NCBI GenBank assembly: GCA_963833985.1
Contig: CAWIAD010000001.1
Location: forward strand, 1-64,000
DNA length: 64,000 bases
Direction: 5' to 3'
DNA from: an uncultured Planctomycetaceae bacterium
Lineage (GTDB): Bacteria; Planctomycetota; Planctomycetia; Isosphaerales; Isosphaeraceae
Positions 56,048-64,000 of the stretch are shown one piece after another; position 1 is the stretch's first letter; each line of letters opens with the position of its first letter. A model generated the notes under the pieces. It saw only the letters and a list, made by a program, of their open reading frames with translations, was not told the origin of the DNA and ran no database searches. A program made the translations under genes and the position numbers.

Positions 56048-56804
56048 ATGAGGCGCACCGTGGACCCCCAGCAACGGGCACTCCAGGAGGAAGTCCGTGA
56101 ACTTTTTCTATCTGGACGGTCCAGGGATCAGCGGGCTGTTCGAGCAGACCATCAACGACGTCGAAAACGAGTTCGATCGGCTTTACCGGGCCGATCCCAT
56201 CGGCAGCCTGCACGAGAAGACGGTCCTTGCCAGGCGACTGGGCGACCTGCTGGGAGTGGACCAGTTAACCACAGGCGGGACGTTCTGCCGGTCCAGGAAA
56301 TACATCGATGAGATCAAGGCCAAGTTGAGCGTCCAAAACAAGACGGTCCGGCTGCTCGACTATCAACGGGACGTCGAATCGGCAGCCAGGGCGTCGACGC
56401 TGGACCTGGCGATCCGCCGCTGGCGGTTCGGTGCGGCCAACCTGATTTGCGTGCACGAACACTTCCACATGCCGCAGTTCACCATGGGGCAGCGGAGCGA
56501 AGTCCTGGTCTACGCATCGGGCTTCTTGGAATTCGAGCTCGAGTTGCTGGTCGAAGCCGGCCTGGGCCGGAGGGGCTCAGCGATGGCCGCCACCGCGACC
56601 CTGACGCGCGAAAAACTGCTCGTGCTGATGTCGGCCAACCTCAGCAAGTTCCAGAACCTGCGGCAGGGGAAGATGACTCCCGAGAGCCCCGAAGCCCAGT
56701 ATTTTCACAGCTTCCAGGGAATGCGCGTGCCGCTCCACGTGCTGGGATCGCTCAACAAGTGCAAGGACGTATTCCGGATCAAGCCGCTGGCACTTTGGCG
56801 GTAG
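56048..56804 (+). CDS. Hypothetical protein, possibly DUF6414-like (probable frameshift at about 56100)
   Basis: ORF 56097-56804; removing one A joins MRRTVDPQQRALQEEVR to DFFYLD; family guess rests on terminal motifs only. Confidence 0.55.
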
Positions 56805-58042
56805 CTCCGGCACTTTGGCGGGACTGCCTCAGGCAGGCCTCATATGCCGCGGGAAAAGGTGAGAGCGCGCGCTCGAAGATGCCCAGAGTGTACGCGATCG
56901 CCAGACCGTAATTGGTCACCGGCACGCCGACTGACCGGAAGCGCTCCAGCCGCGAGACCATTTCACGGCGGTTTTGAACGCAGGCACCGCAATGGATGAC
57001 GAGCTGGTAAGGGCTGAGATCTGGAGGCAGATCGTGACCCGAATAGTGTTCAAACTGAAGCGCTCCGCCGACGTATTGCGTGAGCCAGCGCGGGATCTTC
57101 ACCCGCCCGATGTCGTCGGCGATGGGATGGTGGCTGCACGCCTCGCACACGAGGACGCGATTCCCCGGCCGCAGCCGTTCAATGGCCGTGGCTCCCTGCG
57201 CCTGGAGCACCAGGTCTCCCTTCTGGCGCGAACAGAATTGAAAATGAGGTCAGGGGCACGCCCGGCGGCGTATCGGCCGACACCTTGAGAAATGCCTGCG
57301 AATCCGTAACCACCAGCGCGGGCGGCTCCCGGAGCTGAGCCAGCGCGCCTGCCAGCTCGCGCTCCTTCACCACCAGGGCCAAGGCGTCGTTGTCCAGCAA
57401 GTCACGGATGGTTTGCACCTGGGGCAGGATGAGGCGGCCCTTCGGTGCTTCCTTGTCGATCGGCGTCACCAGCACGACAAGTGCGCCCGGCGGAACCAGG
57501 TCGCCGACCAGCGGCGGTGGGGCCAGAAACTCCTCAGGCGCCACGCGGATCAGCGCCTCCCTCAGCTCGGCGAGGCCCTCGCGACGCGTTGCCGAGGTGC
57601 ACACCGTGCGCACTCCAGCCGACCCCAGGCGGGCGATCTCAGCCTGGCTCGGACGACCCAGGTCCGCCTTGTTGAAGGCAACGACCACCGGGGTCCGACG
57701 GTCCTGAAACTGGGTCAGAAGGCCTTCCTCGAACACGCCCCAGTCGTCCGCGGCCGCGACCAGAACCGCCACGTCGATCCGCTCGAACACGCGGCGAGTG
57801 CGGTGCACGCGCTGCTCTCCCAGATCCCCGACGTCATCGATGCCGGCCGTGTCGATGAACAGCACGGGACCCAGGGGCAATAGCTCCATGGGCTTCTCCA
57901 CCGGATCGGTCGTGGTGCCGGCCACGGCCGAGACAAGCGATACGTCCTGGCGCGAAAGCGCATTCAGAAGCGCGCTCTTGCCGACGTTGCGCCGGCCGAA
58001 AAGCCCGATGTGCAGGCGGTTGGCGTTGGGAGTTCGGAGCAT
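56779..58042 (-). CDS. hydF: [FeFe]-hydrogenase maturation GTPase HydF (frameshift at about 57227)
   Basis: GRRNVGKS, GTTTDPV, DTAG, NKAD, APKGRLILPQ; EACSHH...IHCGAC cluster motif in ORF 56779-57210. Confidence 0.95.
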
Positions 58043-58086
58043 CTCTGGTGAGTCCTGGTGCGCCCGCTACGGCACGAACGCAGATG

Positions 58087-59499
58087 TCAAGGGGTGCCGC
58101 GCCCCGGGAGCTGGGAACCGAGCCTCATTACGGCTTGCGGGCTGACGTACTCGTCGAATTCCGCGCCCGAGAGCAGTCCCTGCTCAACCACCACGGATCG
58201 CAGGTTCCGTCCCTGCTGGCGGGCCAGCAGCGCAACGCCCTGCGCGGCTTCGTAGCCGAGCCGGCCGACCAGGGCCGTGGCCGTTGCCGTGGCTCCCTCA
58301 AGGTGCGAGCGGCAACGCGCCCGGTCCGCCGTGATGCCGTCGATGCAGCGGTCGGCCAGCAAGCTCGATGACCGGGTCAGCAGTTCCACCGCGGTCAGCA
58401 GGCTGTCGGCCACGAGCGGCAGCAGGTGGTTCAGCTCCAGGTTGCCCTGTGCGCAGGCCAGAAAGACCGTCTGGTCGCAGGCCGACGCGGCCCAGGCCGC
58501 CTGGATCACTCCCTCGGGAATGACCGGATTGACCTTTCCGGGCATGAGCGTCGAGCCCACCTGCACTGCCGGCAGGAGAATCTCGCCCAGGCCGGCATCG
58601 GGTCCGGATGCCAGCAGCCGCAGGTCGTTGGACACCTTGATCAGGCTGGCGGCGAGGGCACGGATGATGCCCGAAGCCTCCACGATCGCGTCCAGGTTCT
58701 GGGTGGCGTCAAGCAGGTTCTCGGCGCGGGCCAGGCCGAAACCGGTGATCTCCCGGAGATGCTCGATCACGCGGAAGATATAGGACCTTGGCGCTCCCAG
58801 GCCGGTCCCCACGGCGGTTCCTCCCAGGTTCACGACGCGCAGCCGTTCCGTGCACTTGGCGACACGCCAGCGATCTCGGGCGAACGCGTCGGCAAACGCG
58901 CCGAAGGCCCGGCCCAGGGTGATCGGCACGGCGTCCTGAAGCTGTGTGCGGGCCAGCTTGACGACGTCCGCGAACTCCTGCTCCTTGCGCTGGCACGATT
59001 CGGTCAGCCGCGTGACCGCGGATTCCAGGTTCCTGAGCTGATCCAGGGCGGCCACCCTGAGCGCCGTGGGGTAGGTGTCGTTCGTGGACTGGTGCAGGTT
59101 GACCTGCGCGGGGCCAAGATGCTTGTGATCGCCGGGGGCAAGACCCGCGATCTGTAGCGCGCGGTTGGCGAGCACTTCATTGACGTTCATGTTCGTGGAG
59201 GTGCCGGCTCCTCCCTGAAGCGCGTCGACGATCACATGGGCGTCCAGCGCGCCGGACATCATCTCCCGGCACGCGGCTTCCAGAGGGCGGGTCATCGCCG
59301 CGGGCAGGTAGCCCAGCTCGGCGTTGGTGCGCGCGCACGCGAGCTTCACGGCGCCGAAGCCGCGCACCAGGGAGCGATGCACGGGCCGGCCGGAAAGGGG
59401 AAAGTTCTCGACCGCCCGGCAGGTGGCGATGCCGTAGAGCGCCTCGGCGGGGACCTCCCGCATACCCAGCATGTCGCATTCCATCCGGACTGCCGTCAT
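58087..59499 (-). CDS. aspA: Aspartate ammonia-lyase
   Basis: QGGAGTSTNMNVNE, QSTNDTYPT, RTQLQDAVP, GSTLMPGKVNP. Confidence 0.88.
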   Translation of the reverse strand: MTAVRMECDMLGMREVPAEALYGIATCRAVENFPLSGRPVHRSLVRGFGAVKLACARTNAELGYLPAAMTRPLEAACREMMSGALDAHVIVDALQGGAGTSTNMNVNEVLANRALQIAGLAPGDHKHLGPAQVNLHQSTNDTYPTALRVAALDQLRNLESAVTRLTESCQRKEQEFADVVKLARTQLQDAVPITLGRAFGAFADAFARDRWRVAKCTERLRVVNLGGTAVGTGLGAPRSYIFRVIEHLREITGFGLARAENLLDATQNLDAIVEASGIIRALAASLIKVSNDLRLLASGPDAGLGEILLPAVQVGSTLMPGKVNPVIPEGVIQAAWAASACDQTVFLACAQGNLELNHLLPLVADSLLTAVELLTRSSSLLADRCIDGITADRARCRSHLEGATATATALVGRLGYEAAQGVALLARQQGRNLRSVVVEQGLLSGAEFDEYVSPQAVMRLGSQLPGRGTP

Positions 59500-59542
59500 G
59501 GTCTGGCCTCGCAGTGCAAGACGCGCGGCGCTTGCTCTGGCG

Positions 59543-61055
59543 CTAGAAGAAGAGATCGCGCTCGTCCGTGTTGCGGATCCGCGCCAGCCGGCTGCCGAGT
59601 CTCGCGTTTCAGCTCGCCGTCGGGCAGGGCGTTCAGCTCGCGCGTGAGCATTTGCTCGCCGGCCGCTCGGGTGGACGGGCTCGCGTAATCGACCAGGTAT
59701 TCCAGCAGCGTGCTCAGCGCGTTGGGCGTACACAGCCGCTCGATGAAGCCGGGGATGGCGAACTCCATGAAATGTTCGCCCGTCCGGCCCAGACGATAGC
59801 AGGCCGTGCAAAAGCTGGGGATGTAGTCGTCGTCGAGCAGCTGGCGGACGACCTCGTCCAGCGTGCGGACGTCGCCGAGCTCGAACTGCTCGCGCTCGCG
59901 GACCTGCTGCTGGGAGTCTCCGGCCTCGGTGTAGCCGCCAAGCTCGATGCGGCTGCCGGCGTCGATCTGGGAGACGCCAAAGCCCATGATCTCGTTCCGC
60001 AGCGCGGCCGGCTCACGGGCCGTAAGGATCATGCCCGTGTACGGAACGCTGAGCCGCAGGATCGCGACCACGCGCTTGAAGTCCTCGTCGGAGACCAGAC
60101 AGCGGCTGTTGGAGGCAACCCCTGAGGCCGGGCGCAGCCGTGGAAAGCTGATCGTGTGCGGGCCGCAGTTGTAGCGTTCCTGGAGGAAGCGGGCATGCGC
60201 CACCAGGCCGAGGACCTCGAACCGCCAGTCATACAGTCCGAAGAGCGCGCCCAAGCCCACGTCGTCCAGCCCCGCTTCCATGGCGCGCGAGAGGGCGTCG
60301 AGCCGCCACAGGTAGTCGGCCTTGCGCGTGCCGGCGGCGTGGACGGCCGCGAAAGTGGCGTGGTGGTAGGTCTCCTGGAAGACCTGGTAGGTGCCAATTC
60401 CGGCTTCCTTCACCACGCGGTAGCCCGCGTGGTCAAGCGGAGCGGCGTTGATGTTGACGCGGCGGATCTCCCCCTTCCCCCGCGTCGTTCCGTAAACGAC
60501 GCGTACCGTCTCGGCGATGAACGCGGGGTCGTACTTCGGGTGCTCTCCGAAGACGAGGATCAGCCGCTTGTGGCCGCTGTCTTCCACGGCCTCAACCTGC
60601 GCACGGACCTGGCCCAGGTCAAGCGTGCGGCGGACCGCGTCGATGTTGGACCTGCGGAACCCACAATAGTCGCAATCGTTCACGCAGTAATTGCCGATGT
60701 AGAGCGGCGCGAAGAGAACGATCCGGCGCCCGTACACGTCGCGCTTGAGCTGCCGTGCGGCGTCGAAGATCTCGGCAATGAGGTCCGGGTCGGTCGCGCT
60801 TAGAAGCACCGCGGTCTCGGCGAGCGTGAGCGGCTGCTTCTCCATGCTCCGGGCGATCACTTCGCGCACCTGCCGACGATCCGCCTTGTCGCTCAGCAAG
60901 CCGGTGAGTTCATCGTCGTTGATGAAGTCAACGGCGTGGTCGCTCAGAGCAGCGAGGCTCGGCAGGCCCCGGCCAGCGCGGGGGCCCGGTCGGGCGGCCG
61001 GCCCAGCAGCCGGCGGTAATGGTAAGGGGTTCACAATCGGAAGTTGGTAGTTCAT
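59543..61055 (-). CDS. hydG: [FeFe]-hydrogenase radical SAM maturase HydG (frameshift at about 59600; true end RDLFF*)
   Basis: FAPLY, CVNDCDYC, GEIRRVN, FQETYH, FCTACYR...C. Confidence 0.95.
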
Positions 61056-62144
61056 GTCTGGATACCTAGATTGTTCTGAACCTGGGCTCTTGCTCGGTCC
61101 TGGTAGTTAGGCGAATGGCCGTGGCCGCGACCGACCACACGGCCGATCGACCGGATGCGCCCGTGCAGGCAGCCGTGACAGGCCTGAGCCGAGTCGTCGA
61201 CGCATGCCTTGTTGGGATAGATCTCGTACGCTTTGCGATAGACCATGGGAGTGACGTTCGGCATGACCACGTTTGCGCCGCACTGGAGACCGCGCTCGCG
61301 GCCGCTCGCCGGGTTGAGTGTGGCTAATGCCGTGGTGCTGGGGAGGTTCGCGCGGGGACAGACCAGTCGAGCCAGCGCGATCGTCTTCAAGGTCGTGGTC
61401 TCATCGGCGGGCACCTGGCGGTGCGTCGGGAGTACCCAGCGGCGCACGTCCCGTCCCATGGGGGTCTCGGGGTGTGGGAGATAAGGACCCACCCCGATCA
61501 TGTCCAGGTCGAGGGCCCGCATCAGCTCCAGGTCCGCGGCCAGATCGTCCCAGGACTGACCCGGAATGCCGACCATGACGCCGCTTCCGACCTCATAGCC
61601 CAGGTCGCGTAGGCCCATCAGCAGAGAGATCCGGCTGGCTGGCTGGCTCGCGTGCGGGGGGTGAATCGCCTGGAAGAGCGTGGGATTGGAGGTCTCGAAC
61701 CGCAGCAGGTAGCGATCGGCCCCGGCCTGGCGCCACGCCGCCAGCTCATCGATCCGCCGTTCTCCCAGGCTGAGTGTGACGGCCAGCGGAGTGTGCTCCT
61801 TGATCTCCCGGATGCGATTCGCGACCCAGCGCATATCGAGTCCCGGATCCTCACCCGCCTGGAGCACGACAGTTCCGTAGCCGAGTGAGGCGGCCGTCGC
61901 GGCGGATTGCATCACCTCGGCGGCCGTCATCCGGTACCGCCCGAGCGTGCGGTTGCCGGCGCAGGCCGCAGTAGACGCAGGCGCGCCGGCAGTGATTGGA
62001 GAGCTCGACCAGCCCGCGGAGGTGAACGGCCTGGCCTACGTGCTCGCAACGGACGACGTCGGCCCGGGCGAAAAGCTGGTTCTGCCGCCCTGGATCGGGG
62101 CTCGTCAGAAGCTCGAGAACCTCGGTTCGAGAGATGACGTCCAT
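61052..62144 (-). CDS. hydE: [FeFe]-hydrogenase radical SAM maturase HydE (frameshift at about 61960)
   Basis: RGLVELSNHCRRACVYC; VLQAGED; RYLLRFET; GANVVMPN; YPNKAC...CHGC. Confidence 0.93.
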
Positions 62145-62183
62145 TGCGCCTTCCAGCTTCGGGCCCGGGTGCGGGAATGCGGG

Positions 62184-63920
62184 TCAGTGCCGACCGTCGG
62201 TTTTGTGCGACAGGTTCCGTTCCAGGATCTCGACGACGCGCTCGCCCAGACCTTCGACCTCGGTGACGACCGCCGAGAAAGCCTCCTGAAGCTTCTTCGA
62301 GCACGGCTCGATGACTTCCGCTTCCTTTCGTATGCCACCGGCCAGGTCGCGCACGGCGCTGCTGACGACGGAAAACGCAGCCCCGGCCTGGCCGGCGCGT
62401 GCCGCCTCGATCCGAGCGTTCAGGGCCACAATGTGGGTCTGTCGCGAGAGATCGACGATCGAATCGGCCACCCGTCCCAGCTCGTTGGTCGACTGCGATG
62501 CATCGGTGACCTTGGCGACCGTGCCCTCGAAGTTGGCGATCACTTCCTTCAGTGCGGCCGCGCGCCGCTCCTGGTCTCGATTGATCGTTCCCAGGAAATA
62601 GACACAGTGTTCGCGGCGATTCAGCCCGTTGTGCACGGCGATCGCCATCGCCTCGCACGATCCGTAGCCACAGGCGCCGCAGTTGAGCAGGTCTTCCGGC
62701 CCAAACTTGCTCATGCTTTGGTAGACGGCCTGTAGCTCGGACTGGCTGGGCTTCTTGAGCTTCACCGAGGCCGATCGATCGACGTACGAGCGCTGGAAGC
62801 CCGCGGGATCATCACGCTCACGCAGCAGGCTGGCCACTGCCGCCTGGCAATCCTCATCGCTGGCCTTTTCTCCGGCGTACCGCTCCCGCGCCTCCCTCGC
62901 GCGCTGAGTGACGTAGCTTTCGATTCGATCGATGCCGACCGTGCGTGCCGGCGTGCCCGTACCACCGTTGCACCCTTTCTCGCAACTCAGGCAATCCACC
63001 AGCAGCGGAGCGATGCCCTCGCGGACCGCGCATGGCAGATCGTCAAGATAATGATAGACTCCAGGAGTGCCCTCGATCTTGCGGGTGGCGCGGGAGGCAT
63101 CGCGGCTCCAGCGCTCGAGCGTGTCACGCAGCCCACCGGGCGACGAGAAGAGCACGGCTCGCTCCGCCGGCGGACCGTCGAAGTCGGTGGCCGGGTAGCG
63201 CGAAAGCTCCACCCCGCGCGCCGTGAAGTGCTCTGCGAGCGACCTCATGGTCACGTTGTAATCGCCCAGACCGGTCTCGTCGTACTCTCGCCGCTTGGCG
63301 ATGCACGGAGAGATGACCGCGATTCTGTGACCGAGGTACTGCGGGTACTGGTTTCGCACCATCCGCATGGAGTGCTGCATCGGGCTGCCGGCCGGTGCCA
63401 GGTAAGGCAGTAGCTCGGGCCGGTACAGCTCGATGTACGTGACGATCGCCGGGCAGGGCTGCGCCACCACCGTCGTGGCGTGGCTCTCCGAGATGTGCCG
63501 CAAGTAGCTCTGGACAGTCAGCTCGGCTCCGAAGCTGACGTCGAAGATCGCGCTGACTCCGGACTGCTTGAGCCAGCCGTTGAAGTTGAGGTACTGGTGC
63601 GGGAATGCGGCCGCCACCGCCGGCGCAACCACGGCAATCATCCGTACGCCAGCTTGCAGGTCCCTCCAGAACGCCTCAAAGTCATCCATCGGAAAGTGCG
63701 CACCGTGCTGGCATGCATCAATGCAACTGCCGCAGCCGATGCAAAGCTCAGGGTTGATTTCGACTGCATCGCCGGACGCCACGTTGCAGTACTTGACGGG
63801 GCAGGCGGTAATACAGGCATGGCAATTGACGCACCGCTCCGCGTCGACCCCCACCACGGCAGTCAACCCCTGCTGGGTAAGGTGCGGGCTGCTCGATTGG
63901 GATGCGATCGTTGATGACAT
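62184..63920 (-). CDS. Putative sensory [FeFe]-hydrogenase (group C-like) fused to a methyl-accepting chemotaxis signalling tip
   Basis: Two ferredoxin motifs; H-domain motifs AQPCPA, SPCIAKRRE, DCLSCEKGCNGG; FeS domain NCGACGYGSC; QTHIVALNARIEAARAG. Confidence 0.88.
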   Translation of the reverse strand: MSSTIASQSSSPHLTQQGLTAVVGVDAERCVNCHACITACPVKYCNVASGDAVEINPELCIGCGSCIDACQHGAHFPMDDFEAFWRDLQAGVRMIAVVAPAVAAAFPHQYLNFNGWLKQSGVSAIFDVSFGAELTVQSYLRHISESHATTVVAQPCPAIVTYIELYRPELLPYLAPAGSPMQHSMRMVRNQYPQYLGHRIAVISPCIAKRREYDETGLGDYNVTMRSLAEHFTARGVELSRYPATDFDGPPAERAVLFSSPGGLRDTLERWSRDASRATRKIEGTPGVYHYLDDLPCAVREGIAPLLVDCLSCEKGCNGGTGTPARTVGIDRIESYVTQRAREARERYAGEKASDEDCQAAVASLLRERDDPAGFQRSYVDRSASVKLKKPSQSELQAVYQSMSKFGPEDLLNCGACGYGSCEAMAIAVHNGLNRREHCVYFLGTINRDQERRAAALKEVIANFEGTVAKVTDASQSTNELGRVADSIVDLSRQTHIVALNARIEAARAGQAGAAFSVVSSAVRDLAGGIRKEAEVIEPCSKKLQEAFSAVVTEVEGLGERVVEILERNLSHKTDGRH

Positions 63921-64000
63921 GTTCGCGGCTCCGCTTGCTTGATCCAGCGCGCTGCAACTTCGGGGCGTCAGGCTGGATTGAGGAGAACAGTCATACCAAC

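Follow-up and report, generated by a model that had tools for sequence, protein, structure and literature searches.

A soil planctomycete (genome 10.2 Mb, 96% complete) carries a gene for a sensory-type [FeFe]-hydrogenase that ends in an MCP signaling hairpin and heads an operon with hydE, hydG, aspA, and hydF. What is new is that this sensor is the sole [FeFe]-hydrogenase gene of its genome, unlike the situation in the other C2 hosts that we checked. We consider it probable that the protein is a soluble cytoplasmic chemoreceptor for H2, or for an H2-linked redox change, with a dedicated cofactor assembly.

Organization of the Operon

The window, the whole 64,000-nt stretch of DNA that was analyzed, holds the operon on its minus strand at 56779-63920. 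The initial annotation had described five co-directional genes with gaps below 50 nt, and all five lie where it had placed them, in the order sensor, hydE, hydG, aspA, and hydF, with gaps of 39, 0, 43, and 44 nt. The sensor gene (62184-63920) is an intact ORF of 578 codons. The radical-SAM maturase gene hydE (61052-62144) matches TIGR03956 (E 1.2e-72) over profile positions 81-336, the C-terminal part, and hydG (59543-61055), for the radical-SAM tyrosine lyase maturase, scores 475.2 bits against TIGR03955 (cut-off 312). The gene for aspartate ammonia-lyase, aspA (58087-59499), is intact (NF008909, 575 bits, cut-off 510), and hydF (56779-58042), for the GTPase scaffold maturase, matches TIGR03918 in two frames, at positions 2-270 (357 bits) and 280-392 (160 bits). 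None of the catalytic motifs of HydE, HydG, or HydF is missing.

The placement of aspA between hydG and hydF has precedents in the clusters described in PMC11736057 and in Pelobacter carbinolicus (PMC3543383), although those clusters serve catalytic hydrogenases and the only candidate client here is sensory. According to PMC11736057, AspA, whose gene lies close to hydF, supplies the bridgehead nitrogen of dithiomethylamine in vitro, and the aspA product is likely the ammonium supplier for this bridge here.

Domains, Residues, and Fold of the Sensor

The sensor had been described as containing two [4Fe-4S] motifs, an H-domain with the cluster cysteines and lysine, an extra FeS domain, and an MCP tip; Pfam and our alignments bear out each element, all on the minus strand. 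Two ferredoxin-type [4Fe-4S] motifs (residues 25-74, 63699-63848, Pfam Fer4/Fer4_7) are liganded by C30/33/36/40 and C60/63/66/70, and the H-domain (Fe_hyd_lg_C, PF02906, 96.7 bits) spans residues 93-320 (62961-63644). This is followed by a 4-Cys "Putative Fe-S cluster" domain (residues 412-440, 62601-62687, PF04060 E 2.5e-07) with ligands C414, C417, C422, and C439. The ferredoxin and PF04060 ligands are invariant in 30/30 aligned sequences, as are the H-cluster ligands C156, C206, C313, and C317 together with K209 and E212 in 30/30 homologues; the H-domain has a further invariant Cys, C310.

Residue-level alignments of the H-domain with the solved structures 7qv7_D and 9rkm_A equate QPC156P with TSCCP, PC206IAK209RRE212 with MPCxxKxxE, and C313EKGC317NGG with CxxGCxxGG of [FeFe]-hydrogenases. 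In CpI numbering (from PMC10055695), C299 is replaced by Pro155, M353 by Ser204, and M497 by Leu311. Among sensory [FeFe]-hydrogenases, that paper gives Pro at the C299 site in ∼10% and Ser at the M353 site in ∼32%, with the M497 site nonconserved, so Pro/Ser/Leu at these sites reads as a sensory signature. The initial annotation was right that Pro takes the place of the proton-relay Cys in its AQPCP motif, but this is not peculiar to the sensor, since QPCPA is invariant in 30/30 C2 homologues.

The protein ends in a two-helix MCP signaling hairpin (residues 441-578, 62187-62600) with a PF00015 match of 57.9 bits that spans residues 464-562 and profile positions 18-116 of 172. The AF2 model (mean pLDDT 85.2) likewise ends in a two-helix hairpin, with helices at 440-508 and 510-574 and the conserved tip "...ALNARIEAARAG..."; the last FeS ligand, C439, directly precedes the first signaling helix, which begins at residue 440 in the model. 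Alignment gaps show that most homologues have a longer hairpin, and a motif scan found no methylation-like motif in that of the sensor. When the model was searched with Foldseek, the top matches were all [FeFe]-hydrogenases, with 74 matches at E ≤ 0.001 (8zqd_A, E 6e-16).

Class Assignment and Comparison with Known Sensors

On its sequence the sensor fits HydDB group C2, "Chemotactic (putative)" (PMC5037454), an already catalogued class, and the earlier assignment to chemotaxis-linked group C was thus correct: the domain order (Fer4 x2, H-domain, 4-Cys FeS, MCP signaling domain) matches, and the QPCPA, PCxAKxRE, and DCLxCxxGCNGG motifs are invariant. The homologue search gave 3542 matches at E ≤ 0.001, and the architecture is common to all but 2 of 120 among the matches listed. 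Hundreds of proteins are 45-57% identical to the sensor over >90% of its length; their hosts belong to the Spirochaetota, Bacteroidota, Desulfobacterota, Acidobacteriota, and gut Planctomycetota. Among named relatives, the nearest come from Isosphaeraceae, Gemmataceae, and other Planctomycetota MAGs. Unlike other C2 proteins, the sensor, with its shortened hairpin, falls in a distinct, well-supported subclade (SH-like support 100, stem length 0.65) made up of sequences from soil Isosphaeraceae and Gemmataceae, and the maturase genes stand in its own operon, an arrangement found in 3/80 related loci.

Group C had been called uncharacterized, which is too broad: TmHydS of the strict anaerobe Thermotoga maritima and TamHydS, the latter placed in group C in one paper and in group D in another, are described as biochemically studied. 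For C2 itself the statement stands in that our literature search found no paper on an MCP-bearing member. TmHydS, by its published description (PMC10055695; PMC13104023), resembles the sensor in keeping the cluster-ligating Cys residues while losing the canonical proton pathway, and in having an extra C-terminal [4Fe-4S] site ahead of the output domain; the C299/M353/M497 equivalents are Ala/Gly/Ser in TmHydS versus Pro/Ser/Leu here. Group C/D sensory hydrogenases are described with a PAS domain (PMC11216029, PMC8924675, PMC13104023), in place of which the sensor has its MCP hairpin.

Histidine-kinase-linked sensors of group C1 architecture share the same input module beside hydE-hydG-aspA-hydF. 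On metagenome contigs, 7 of the 11 hydrogenase-like HydG neighbors scanned have the order Fer4-H-domain-FeS-HisKA-HATPase_c; their output is a two-component kinase rather than an MCP, and they are 24-33% identical to the sensor. A 65%-identical input module in G011, a genome of the same genus, is fused to HisKA-HATPase_c-REC instead of an MCP, which suggests that the output domain is interchangeable. A more distant parallel is offered by the regulatory [NiFe]-hydrogenases (HydDB group 2b), in which aerobes use a catalytically crippled hydrogenase to sense H2 (Table 1, PMC5037454), although these histidine-kinase-linked proteins belong to an unrelated family with a different cofactor and have a transcriptional, not chemotactic, output.

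Genomic Distribution and Gene Neighborhood

PF02906 has one match in the genome, the sensor itself, so HydE, HydG, and HydF have no other candidate client. The initial annotation had seen no catalytic hydrogenase in the window, and for the [FeFe] type this holds genome-wide. Other C2-bearing genomes differ in this respect, with 2-8 PF02906 matches in 19/19 checked, some of them above 300 bits; a Gemmataceae relative has one match. Within the family, PF02906 matches occur in 4/121 genomes, one copy each. HydG matches above the curated cut-off are confined in the family to this genome and G090; hydG is in pieces in G007, and G011 has a weaker partial match, like most members of the genus.

The order sensor-hydE-hydG-aspA-hydF recurs in three (L015, L016, and L018) of the 80 related loci and is intact in L018. 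The 35 flanking ORFs of our genome gave one single weak match in L015 and none in L016-L018, and, judged from gene order, the five-gene module is apparently kept as a whole.

It had been suggested that a hydrogenase might lie upstream and that cheA and cheW be looked for. Beyond position 64000 there is no hydA; a che operon, with both cheA and cheW, lies there instead. The divergent intergenic region between it and the sensor is 572 nt long and begins within the window (63921-64000), and the che operon, identified by Pfam, occupies 64493-73033 of the contig. It holds a complete cluster of cheA, cheW, a GAF-MCP gene, cheY, cheB (split over two frames), cheR, and cheX, and its CheA has Hpt, H-kinase_dim, HATPase_c, CZB, and CheW domains. 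The genome has one other cheA locus. FlhA is present, and a profile search of the genome gave no match for Flagellin_N. Neither L015 nor L016 shares the che adjacency, and a cheA match is nearby in only 5/80 related loci. This lack of conservation, the missing Flagellin_N match, and the short hairpin without a methylation-like motif all count against a chemoreceptor for H2.

Proposed Mechanism

We propose that the input module of the receptor is a noncatalytic "sensory" group C2 [FeFe]-hydrogenase in which H2 would react at the H-cluster held by C156, C206, C313, and C317. Because the sensor lacks the classical proton relay (Pro155 for Cys; the E279/E282 equivalents missing), turnover should be slow. 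A redox change at the H-cluster would pass to the adjacent 4-Cys cluster (C414-C439), and, with C439 abutting the first MCP helix, a change there should shift the hairpin tip that would control CheA/CheW. The likely partner pathway is the divergent che cluster, and it is through the neighboring CheA that we infer signaling to occur. Downstream of the sensor, hydE, hydG, aspA, and hydF would be co-transcribed, and their products would build the [2Fe] subcluster: HydG would give CO/CN, HydE would process further, HydF would act as scaffold and in the dithiomethylamine step, and AspA would give ammonium. In this organism the maturases would serve the sensor alone.

Alternative Explanations

The same domains might instead form a receptor for redox, oxygen, or energy taxis, whose FeS chain, whether or not a full H-cluster is part of it, would signal how reduced the ferredoxin pool is, or exposure to O2/CO, with H2 as one input at most. 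We hold this to be possible but unlikely. Three ferredoxin-like/FeS sites do flank the H-domain, and the CZB domain of the neighboring CheA and the GAF domains of the neighboring MCP suggest integration of intracellular signals; a pure FeS redox sensor, however, would not need HydE, HydG, and HydF, which are here without another client. The five-gene order is also seen in three related loci, and no residue that holds the [2Fe] subsite varies among the aligned homologues. The lineage had been called mainly aerobic, in line with the haem-copper and bd oxidases encoded and with the nearest named relatives being Planctomycetota. In a cell with such oxidases, an O2-labile cluster could itself serve to sense O2, and an H-cluster in an O2-respiring organism poses a stability problem that counts against H2 reception. 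So does the absence of any characterized C2 protein: the literature search gave no direct link of a C2 protein to H2, and both PMC5037454 and PMC8924675 call group C putatively sensory.

Rather less probable is a decaying module, in which hydE, hydG, and hydF are truly frameshifted and the receptor, lacking a [2Fe] subsite, is nonfunctional or a mere [4Fe-4S] protein. The breaks do exist in the assembly, one per gene. In hydE the N-terminal part with CRRACVYC is in another frame, with the break at ∼61957-61963 just after the CX3CX2C motif, and comparison with the intact L018 gene indicates 2 nt apparently missing in CTGCGC[GC]CGGC. The hydG product has both CVNDCDYC and the C-terminal CX2CX22C motif, and a break near the C-terminus (∼59599-59603) puts the last ∼18 residues ("...IRNTDERDLFF*") in the +1 frame. 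The hydF break lies at ∼57225-57229, with P-loop GRRNVGKS and CxH...HCxxC present and, relative to L015, 2 nt apparently missing in TTCGCGC[GC]CAG. Three breaks in ∼7.0 kb are on the high side of the genome-wide rate of 0.107 per kb (expected ∼0.75; Poisson P(≥3) ∼0.04), all three shift the same way (f to f+1), the module is rare and patchy, as expected of a dispensable acquired trait, and G011 has only its weaker partial HydG-family match. Assembly error is nevertheless the likelier cause, because 10/73 conserved genes sampled genome-wide are split likewise and the operon is intact in a relative with a short-read-looking assembly. That cheB and cytochrome bd subunit I are also split points to consensus errors. 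Apart from its single break, each gene is free of stops and retains its catalytic motifs, and the products are 63-75% identical to their intact L018 counterparts, a range close to the 64-81% of L015. L015 shares the hydE break, with codon and GC-repeat context alike, while L016, with other codons there, and L018 are unbroken; this pattern suggests a sequence-context artifact, and by the gene tree the break is not inherited.

That the protein produces or consumes H2 as a functional hydrogenase and merely carries an MCP-like tail is very improbable, for although its H-cluster ligands are complete and sensory-type TmHydS is described as retaining measurable turnover (PMC10055695), it has Pro for the proton-relay Cys, "VQSY" in the E279/E282 region, an H-domain score of 96.7 bits versus >300 for catalytic enzymes, a TIGR04105 score of 135.9 bits versus a cut-off of 450, and a C-terminus with a conserved CheA/CheW-binding tip.

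Biological Implications

The genome has two [NiFe]-hydrogenase loci, and NiFe matches occur in 77/121 family genomes. If the sensor is the H2 chemoreceptor that we favor, its likely benefit would be locating H2 for the [NiFe]-hydrogenases or guiding movement in H2/O2 gradients.

Putative Sensor Operon and Its Lead Protein

The genome examined here (G000) comprises 10.16 Mb on two contigs with 65% G+C, and the window covers the initial 64 kb of one of these, C1. Five genes run together on its minus strand: the sensor gene, an intact ORF of 578 aa (63920-62184), is followed by hydE (62144-61052), hydG (61055-59543), aspA (59499-58087), and hydF (58042-56779), with intergenic gaps of 39, 0, 43, and 44 nt. 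ORF, NCBIfam, and Pfam searches reproduce the coordinates, order, and spacing that the initial annotation had given for these genes. HydG (475 bits, cut-off 312) and AspA (NF008909, 575 bits, cut-off 510) exceed their NCBIfam cut-offs. HydF matches its profile at positions 2-270 and 280-392 in two frames, the N-terminal part scoring 357 bits (cut-off 326), and the C-terminal part of HydE alone falls just short of its cut-off (245 vs 254.6 bits), as ∼80 profile positions at the start are encoded in another frame. Maturase motifs are found in all three proteins: CX3CX2C in HydE and HydG, CX2CX22C in HydG, and a P-loop with CxH..HCxxC in HydF. On the plus strand, a 235-aa ORF without a Pfam match (56097-56804) runs toward hydF and shares 26 nt with the 3′ end of that gene. 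We also note that CTGCAG is strongly depleted in G000, with 290 copies where a maximal-order Markov model predicts ∼2535 (observed/expected 0.11); the ratio is 0.7-1.0 for other GC-rich palindromes. This depletion hints at a PstI-type restriction-modification system in the genome.

Pfam divides the sensor into two Fer4-type 4Fe-4S motifs (residues 25-74), an Fe_hyd_lg_C H-domain (PF02906, residues 93-320; 96.7 bits, cut-off 22.1), a four-Cys "Putative Fe-S cluster" domain (PF04060, residues 412-440), and an MCPsignal domain (PF00015, residues 464-562; 57.9 bits, cut-off 34.6) covering profile positions 18-116 of 172. The four Cys of PF04060 are invariant in 30/30 aligned homologues from C2, the putatively chemotactic [FeFe]-hydrogenase group of HydDB. 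Residue-level alignment to solved [FeFe]-hydrogenases pairs QPC156P with TSCCP, PC206IAK209RRE212 with MPCxxKxxE, and C313EKGC317NGG with CxxGCxxGG; C156, C206, C313, C317, K209, and E212 have counterparts in the motifs of 7qv7_D and 9rkm_A and are invariant in all 30 sequences. We take these four Cys to match the H-cluster ligands C300, C355, C499, and C503 of CpI, and K209 and E212 to be the Lys and Glu of motif L2. The relay Cys (TSCCP), Met353, and Met497 of catalytic-type enzymes are absent, with Pro155, Ser204, and Leu311 in their places, and the sensor reaches 95-136 bits with the NCBIfam models for groups A and B1, whose cut-offs are 406-450. An additional Cys, C310 ("DCLxC"; window 62991-62993), lies three residues before C313, outside the prototypical motif, and is invariant in 30/30 C2 sequences; it could act as a substitute proton relay or as a redox-active thiol.

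An AlphaFold2 model built with 30 homologues (mean pLDDT 85.2) has a pair of long helices at its C-terminus (440-508 and 510-574; ∼69 and 65 residues). When the model was compared with the PDB by Foldseek, all of the top 50 matches were [FeFe]-hydrogenases, at a probability of 1.00 and TM ∼0.5 over 430-470 columns, with CbA5H (8zqd_A, E 6e-16) the best, followed by DdH, CpI, and HydABC. The tip of the helical pair matches MCP models and solved MCPs (6s18_A, E 2.3e-08), and N501, A502, G510, G513, and F516 at the tip are invariant in the 30-sequence alignment. MCPs dimerize. In MCPs, helices with Glu/Gln pairs are methylated for adaptation through CheR/CheB; a search of the short hairpin with an approximate consensus found no such site. 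A hydrophobicity scan in 19-residue windows found no N-terminal membrane or periplasmic part, the peak of 1.71 falling within the H-domain (residues 88-106), and we therefore read the sensor as soluble.

Relation to Known Sensory Hydrogenases

Group C2 is defined by an H-domain fused to a methyl-accepting chemotaxis signaling domain (PMC5037454 Table 1), and the sensor has both, the PF00015 domain appearing in the model as a two-helix hairpin. In a FastTree phylogeny it groups with 72 homologues fused to an MCP, and it shares invariant motifs with them, a result that serves as a proxy for HydDB's own classifier. A search of a 5.8-billion-protein collection gave 3542 matches at E ≤ 0.001 among 8000 scored; MCPsignal is present in all but 2 of the best 120 listed matches (44-82% identity) and the FeS domain in most of them, so the Fer4/H-domain/MCP architecture is a common one. 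Among the matches listed, P0002, P0003, and P0013 are 82% identical to the sensor. PMC13104023 describes, as a group C/D trait, an additional [4Fe-4S] site on the C-terminal side of the H-domain, ahead of the output; in the sensor, PF04060 (residues 412-440) provides this site. Architecture and C2 motifs together bear out the initial placement in group C, putatively sensory and linked to chemotaxis.

The same annotation had drawn attention to a Pro in place of the proton-transfer Cys. The substitution stands, but it is a clade-wide trait, since Q154-P155-C156-P157-A158 is invariant across 30 aligned C2 homologues. For sensory [FeFe]-hydrogenases, PMC10055695 gives Cys at the CpI-C299 site in only 17% of cases, with Ala in ∼43%, Pro in ∼10%, and Ser in ∼10%; Gly, Ser, or Thr occupies the M353 site (Ser204 in the sensor), the M497 site is non-conserved (Leu311 in the sensor), and the remaining proton-pathway residues are likewise altered. 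The further remark that group C is uncharacterized is too broad, as TmHydS and TamHydS have been studied biochemically; for C2 it agrees with the accessible literature on sensory and chemotaxis-type [FeFe]-hydrogenases, in which we found no paper with a C2 member as its subject. TamHydS is assigned to group C by one paper and to group D by another, and PMC8924675 still calls the sensory assignment putative. The gene order has precedents as well: PMC11736057 describes aspA placed between hydG and hydF and reports that AspA supplies the bridgehead nitrogen of the dithiomethylamine ligand in vitro, and PMC3543383 describes aspA in this position in Pelobacter carbinolicus as well. Earlier work already covers the protein class, the Pro substitution, and the hydG-aspA-hydF arrangement.

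Distribution and Sole Candidate Client of the Maturases

The closest named relatives of the sensor are Planctomycetota MAGs: an uncultured Planctomycetota bin (locus L015, genome G090; 69% identity), a "Planctomycetaceae" bin of the same genus as G000 (L016, G007; 67%), an Isosphaeraceae bin (L017, G011; 64% over sensor residues 1-459), and a Gemmataceae bin (L018; 63%). The remaining relatives, at ≤57%, come from Desulfoluna, Bacteroidales, Holophagaceae, many Treponema, and termite-gut Planctomycetes. The FastTree phylogeny holds 73 sequences, 7 of the 80 loci having been left out because their match was shorter than 450 residues. G000 and L015-L018 form one clade on a long stem with SH-like support of 100, separate from the clade of gut and Thermoguttaceae planctomycetes; it joins the Holophagaceae bog MAG L023 with support of 85, a placement that we flag as a possible long-branch artifact. 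The branching order inside the clade, from FastTree only, is L018,(G000,(L015,(L016,L017))). G090 belongs to another genus than G000, G007, and G011, so that the tree departs from the genus labels, a mismatch that hints at transfer among Isosphaeraceae.

PF02906 occurs in 4 of 121 family genomes (G000, G007, G011, and G090) with one match each, leaving 117/121 without an [FeFe]-hydrogenase gene. The sensor is the sole match in G000 (completeness 96%), and the Gemmataceae genome likewise has one match only. All 19 of the other C2-bearing genomes checked have 2-8 matches, including typical catalytic enzymes at >300 bits. HydG-family matches above the curated cut-off are confined to G000 and G090, the gene of G007 being in pieces; other matches reach ∼147-198 bits over profile positions ∼80-380, and G011 has this kind only. 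We read these weaker matches as ThiH-like paralogues. By the H-domain and HydG counts, the sensor is the only candidate for a client of HydEFG in these soil planctomycetes.

The five-gene order (sensor-hydE-hydG-aspA-hydF) is found again in L015, L016, and L018 and in none of the other 77 related loci, although L023 has a hydE-like neighbor and L017 stops at a contig edge. Of 35 flanking ORFs in G000, one has a weak match in L015 and none has a match in L016-L018; because the flanks are not common to L015-L018, the five genes appear to move as a unit. In G011 (L013:6842-9508), an input 65% identical over residues 1-459 is joined to HisKA-HATPase_c-Response_reg, without the MCP hairpin, and the contig ends directly after this gene. 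This is an exchange of an MCP output for a histidine kinase within one genus (G000 vs G011).

A metagenome scan with HydG returned no relative above 73% identity and a hydrogenase-like gene near 16 of 80 loci. Among 11 such neighbors scanned, seven have the composition Fer4/H-domain/FeS/HisKA/HATPase_c, three are prototypical HydA, and one is atypical, so a sensory hydrogenase beside hydE-hydG-aspA-hydF is not peculiar to the planctomycete clade. Histidine-kinase-linked sensory [FeFe]-hydrogenases adjoin hydE/hydG(/aspA)/hydF at L126, L134, L139, L140, L158, L186, and L204, where HydG is 59-72% identical to that of G000.

Frame Breaks in the Maturase Genes

In this assembly, hydE, hydG, and hydF each contain one switch from frame f to f+1. 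The intact genes of L018, together with those of L015 and L016, serve as the reference; this comparison places 2 absent nt in CTGCGC[GC]CGGC of hydE and 2 in TTCGCGC[GC]CAG of hydF, and gives either one extra A (GAG-A-CTC) or 2 missing nt in hydG. In L015, hydE is broken at the same codon as in G000, with the same GC repeat around it; L016, which has other codons there, and L018, whose contig name suggests a short-read assembly, are unbroken. As background, G000 was searched with 192 long ORFs of high GC3, drawn from twenty 20-kb stretches of the congener G004, of which 73 had an orthologue in G000 at ≥60% identity and ≥70% coverage. Ten of the 73 orthologues are split by a frame switch, with 12 switches in 111.8 kb (0.107 per kb), mainly single-base changes in G/C runs. 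Also split in G000 are cheB and cytochrome bd subunit I, the latter as two overlapping pieces in different frames at G000:C2 5603858-5605124, a probable assembly frame break.

Three breaks in ∼7.0 kb of hyd genes compare with ∼0.75 expected (Poisson P ∼ 0.04), an excess that is somewhat high and short of decisive. The maturases are 63-75% identical to the intact L018 proteins, comparable to those of L015 (64-81%). We consider consensus errors the more probable cause, with good confidence, and true disruption correspondingly improbable. Programmed +1 frameshifting or phase variation came to mind because all three shifts have the same direction and L015 breaks at the same hydE codon; it is unlikely, given unbroken genes in L016 and L018, no common slippery motif, and frequent breaks genome-wide. 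Two of the breaks resemble (GC)3 contracted to (GC)2, which prompted a count of GCGCGC; with 7647 copies in G000 at an observed/expected ratio of 0.82, like that of relatives, systematic collapse is rejected. Since GCGCGC is not collapsed and the background breaks are mostly of another type than dinucleotide contractions, the hyd breaks fit no one simple rule. Pseudogene calls in G000 need read-level confirmation because frame breaks are frequent.

Chemotaxis Genes and Hydrogen Metabolism Beyond the Window

A catalytic hydA had been suggested to lie upstream of the window. It is absent: the sequence beyond 64000 on G000:C1 holds a che cluster divergent from the sensor, and the sensor is the only PF02906 match genome-wide. 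The cluster consists of cheA (64493-67243; Hpt, dimerization, HATPase_c, CZB, and CheW domains), cheW (67247-67696), a GAF-MCP gene (67733-69844), cheY (69922-70293), cheB (∼70352-71550), cheR (71541-72410), and cheX (72548-73033). The REC and esterase domains of cheB lie on two frames, with the receiver at L014:6352-7209 in one and the methylesterase at L014:6612-7550 in another. In CheA, the CZB (chemoreceptor zinc-binding) domain is located between the kinase and CheW-like parts, and the GAF-MCP carries a pair of GAF domains without any evident membrane segment. The check for cheA that the initial annotation proposed finds two loci in the genome, one of them beside the sensor; this adjacency is not kept in L015 or L016. 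FlhA was found in G000, and a genome search gave no match to Flagellin_N.

Two [NiFe]-hydrogenase loci are present in G000 (G000:C1 1253184-1256101 and G000:C2 4729163-4733950). One is a pair of small and large subunits resembling group 1 uptake enzymes, and the other looks Hox-like, with NuoF/HoxU-like genes upstream that were assigned by eye from the starts of their ORFs. NiFe large-subunit matches occur in 77/121 family genomes. G000 also has two heme-copper oxidases and a cytochrome bd.

Proposed Mechanism and Significance

From the gene set, domains, conserved ligands, fold, and distribution, we infer the following course of events. HydG, HydE, and HydF would install the [2Fe] subsite on the [4Fe-4S] cluster of C156, C206, C313, and C317, with AspA supplying ammonium. 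H2 would be split at the putative H-cluster, presumably slowly because the canonical proton relay is missing, and the electron would pass to the C414-C439 cluster. The last ligand of that cluster abuts helix 440-508, through which the redox state of the cluster could influence how the hairpin (440-508, 510-574) packs. The hairpin tip would then modulate CheA/CheW, probably those of the neighboring cluster; if the system adapts at all, other receptors in the array may provide this. The main competing explanation, a sensor of redox state in general or of O2, loses weight through the dedicated maturases. The sequence features described in the initial annotation hold, and the analysis supports its reading of them as a soluble H2 or redox receptor with co-expressed cofactor assembly, H2 as the signal being putative.

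Group C [FeFe]-hydrogenases are abundant in genomes, yet their sensory role is called putative, and in most hosts they are accompanied by several catalytic hydrogenases, so that genetic results are hard to read. Matters are simpler in the Isosphaeraceae/Gemmataceae version, with a single hydrogenase-like gene, maturases in its own operon, and a minimal hairpin, and one operon makes the question directly testable; G000 adds the neighboring che cluster and, within its genus, the apparent swap of an MCP for a hybrid histidine kinase. The system also has implications for H2 cycling by soil bacteria that are nominally aerobic and for whether O2-respiring cells can maintain an H-cluster. What goes beyond the routine is that a sensory [FeFe]-hydrogenase occurs as an "orphan" equipped with its own maturases in an O2-respiring soil planctomycete host, together with the adjoining che cluster, the natural output swap in a congener, and a family in which 117/121 genomes lack an [FeFe]-hydrogenase gene. 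We tentatively suggest, as a reading that is possible rather than probable, that the five genes are a self-contained, horizontally moving "hydrogen sense organ", with which aerobic or facultative soil planctomycetes without a catalytic [FeFe]-hydrogenase would sense H2 by an H-cluster and steer behavior (through the MCP) or gene expression (through the histidine kinase of the congener) toward H2 burnt by [NiFe]-hydrogenases. If true, this would be the first case of the whole HydEFG/AspA machinery kept for a sensor alone, and an H-cluster would have to work in an oxygen-respiring cell.
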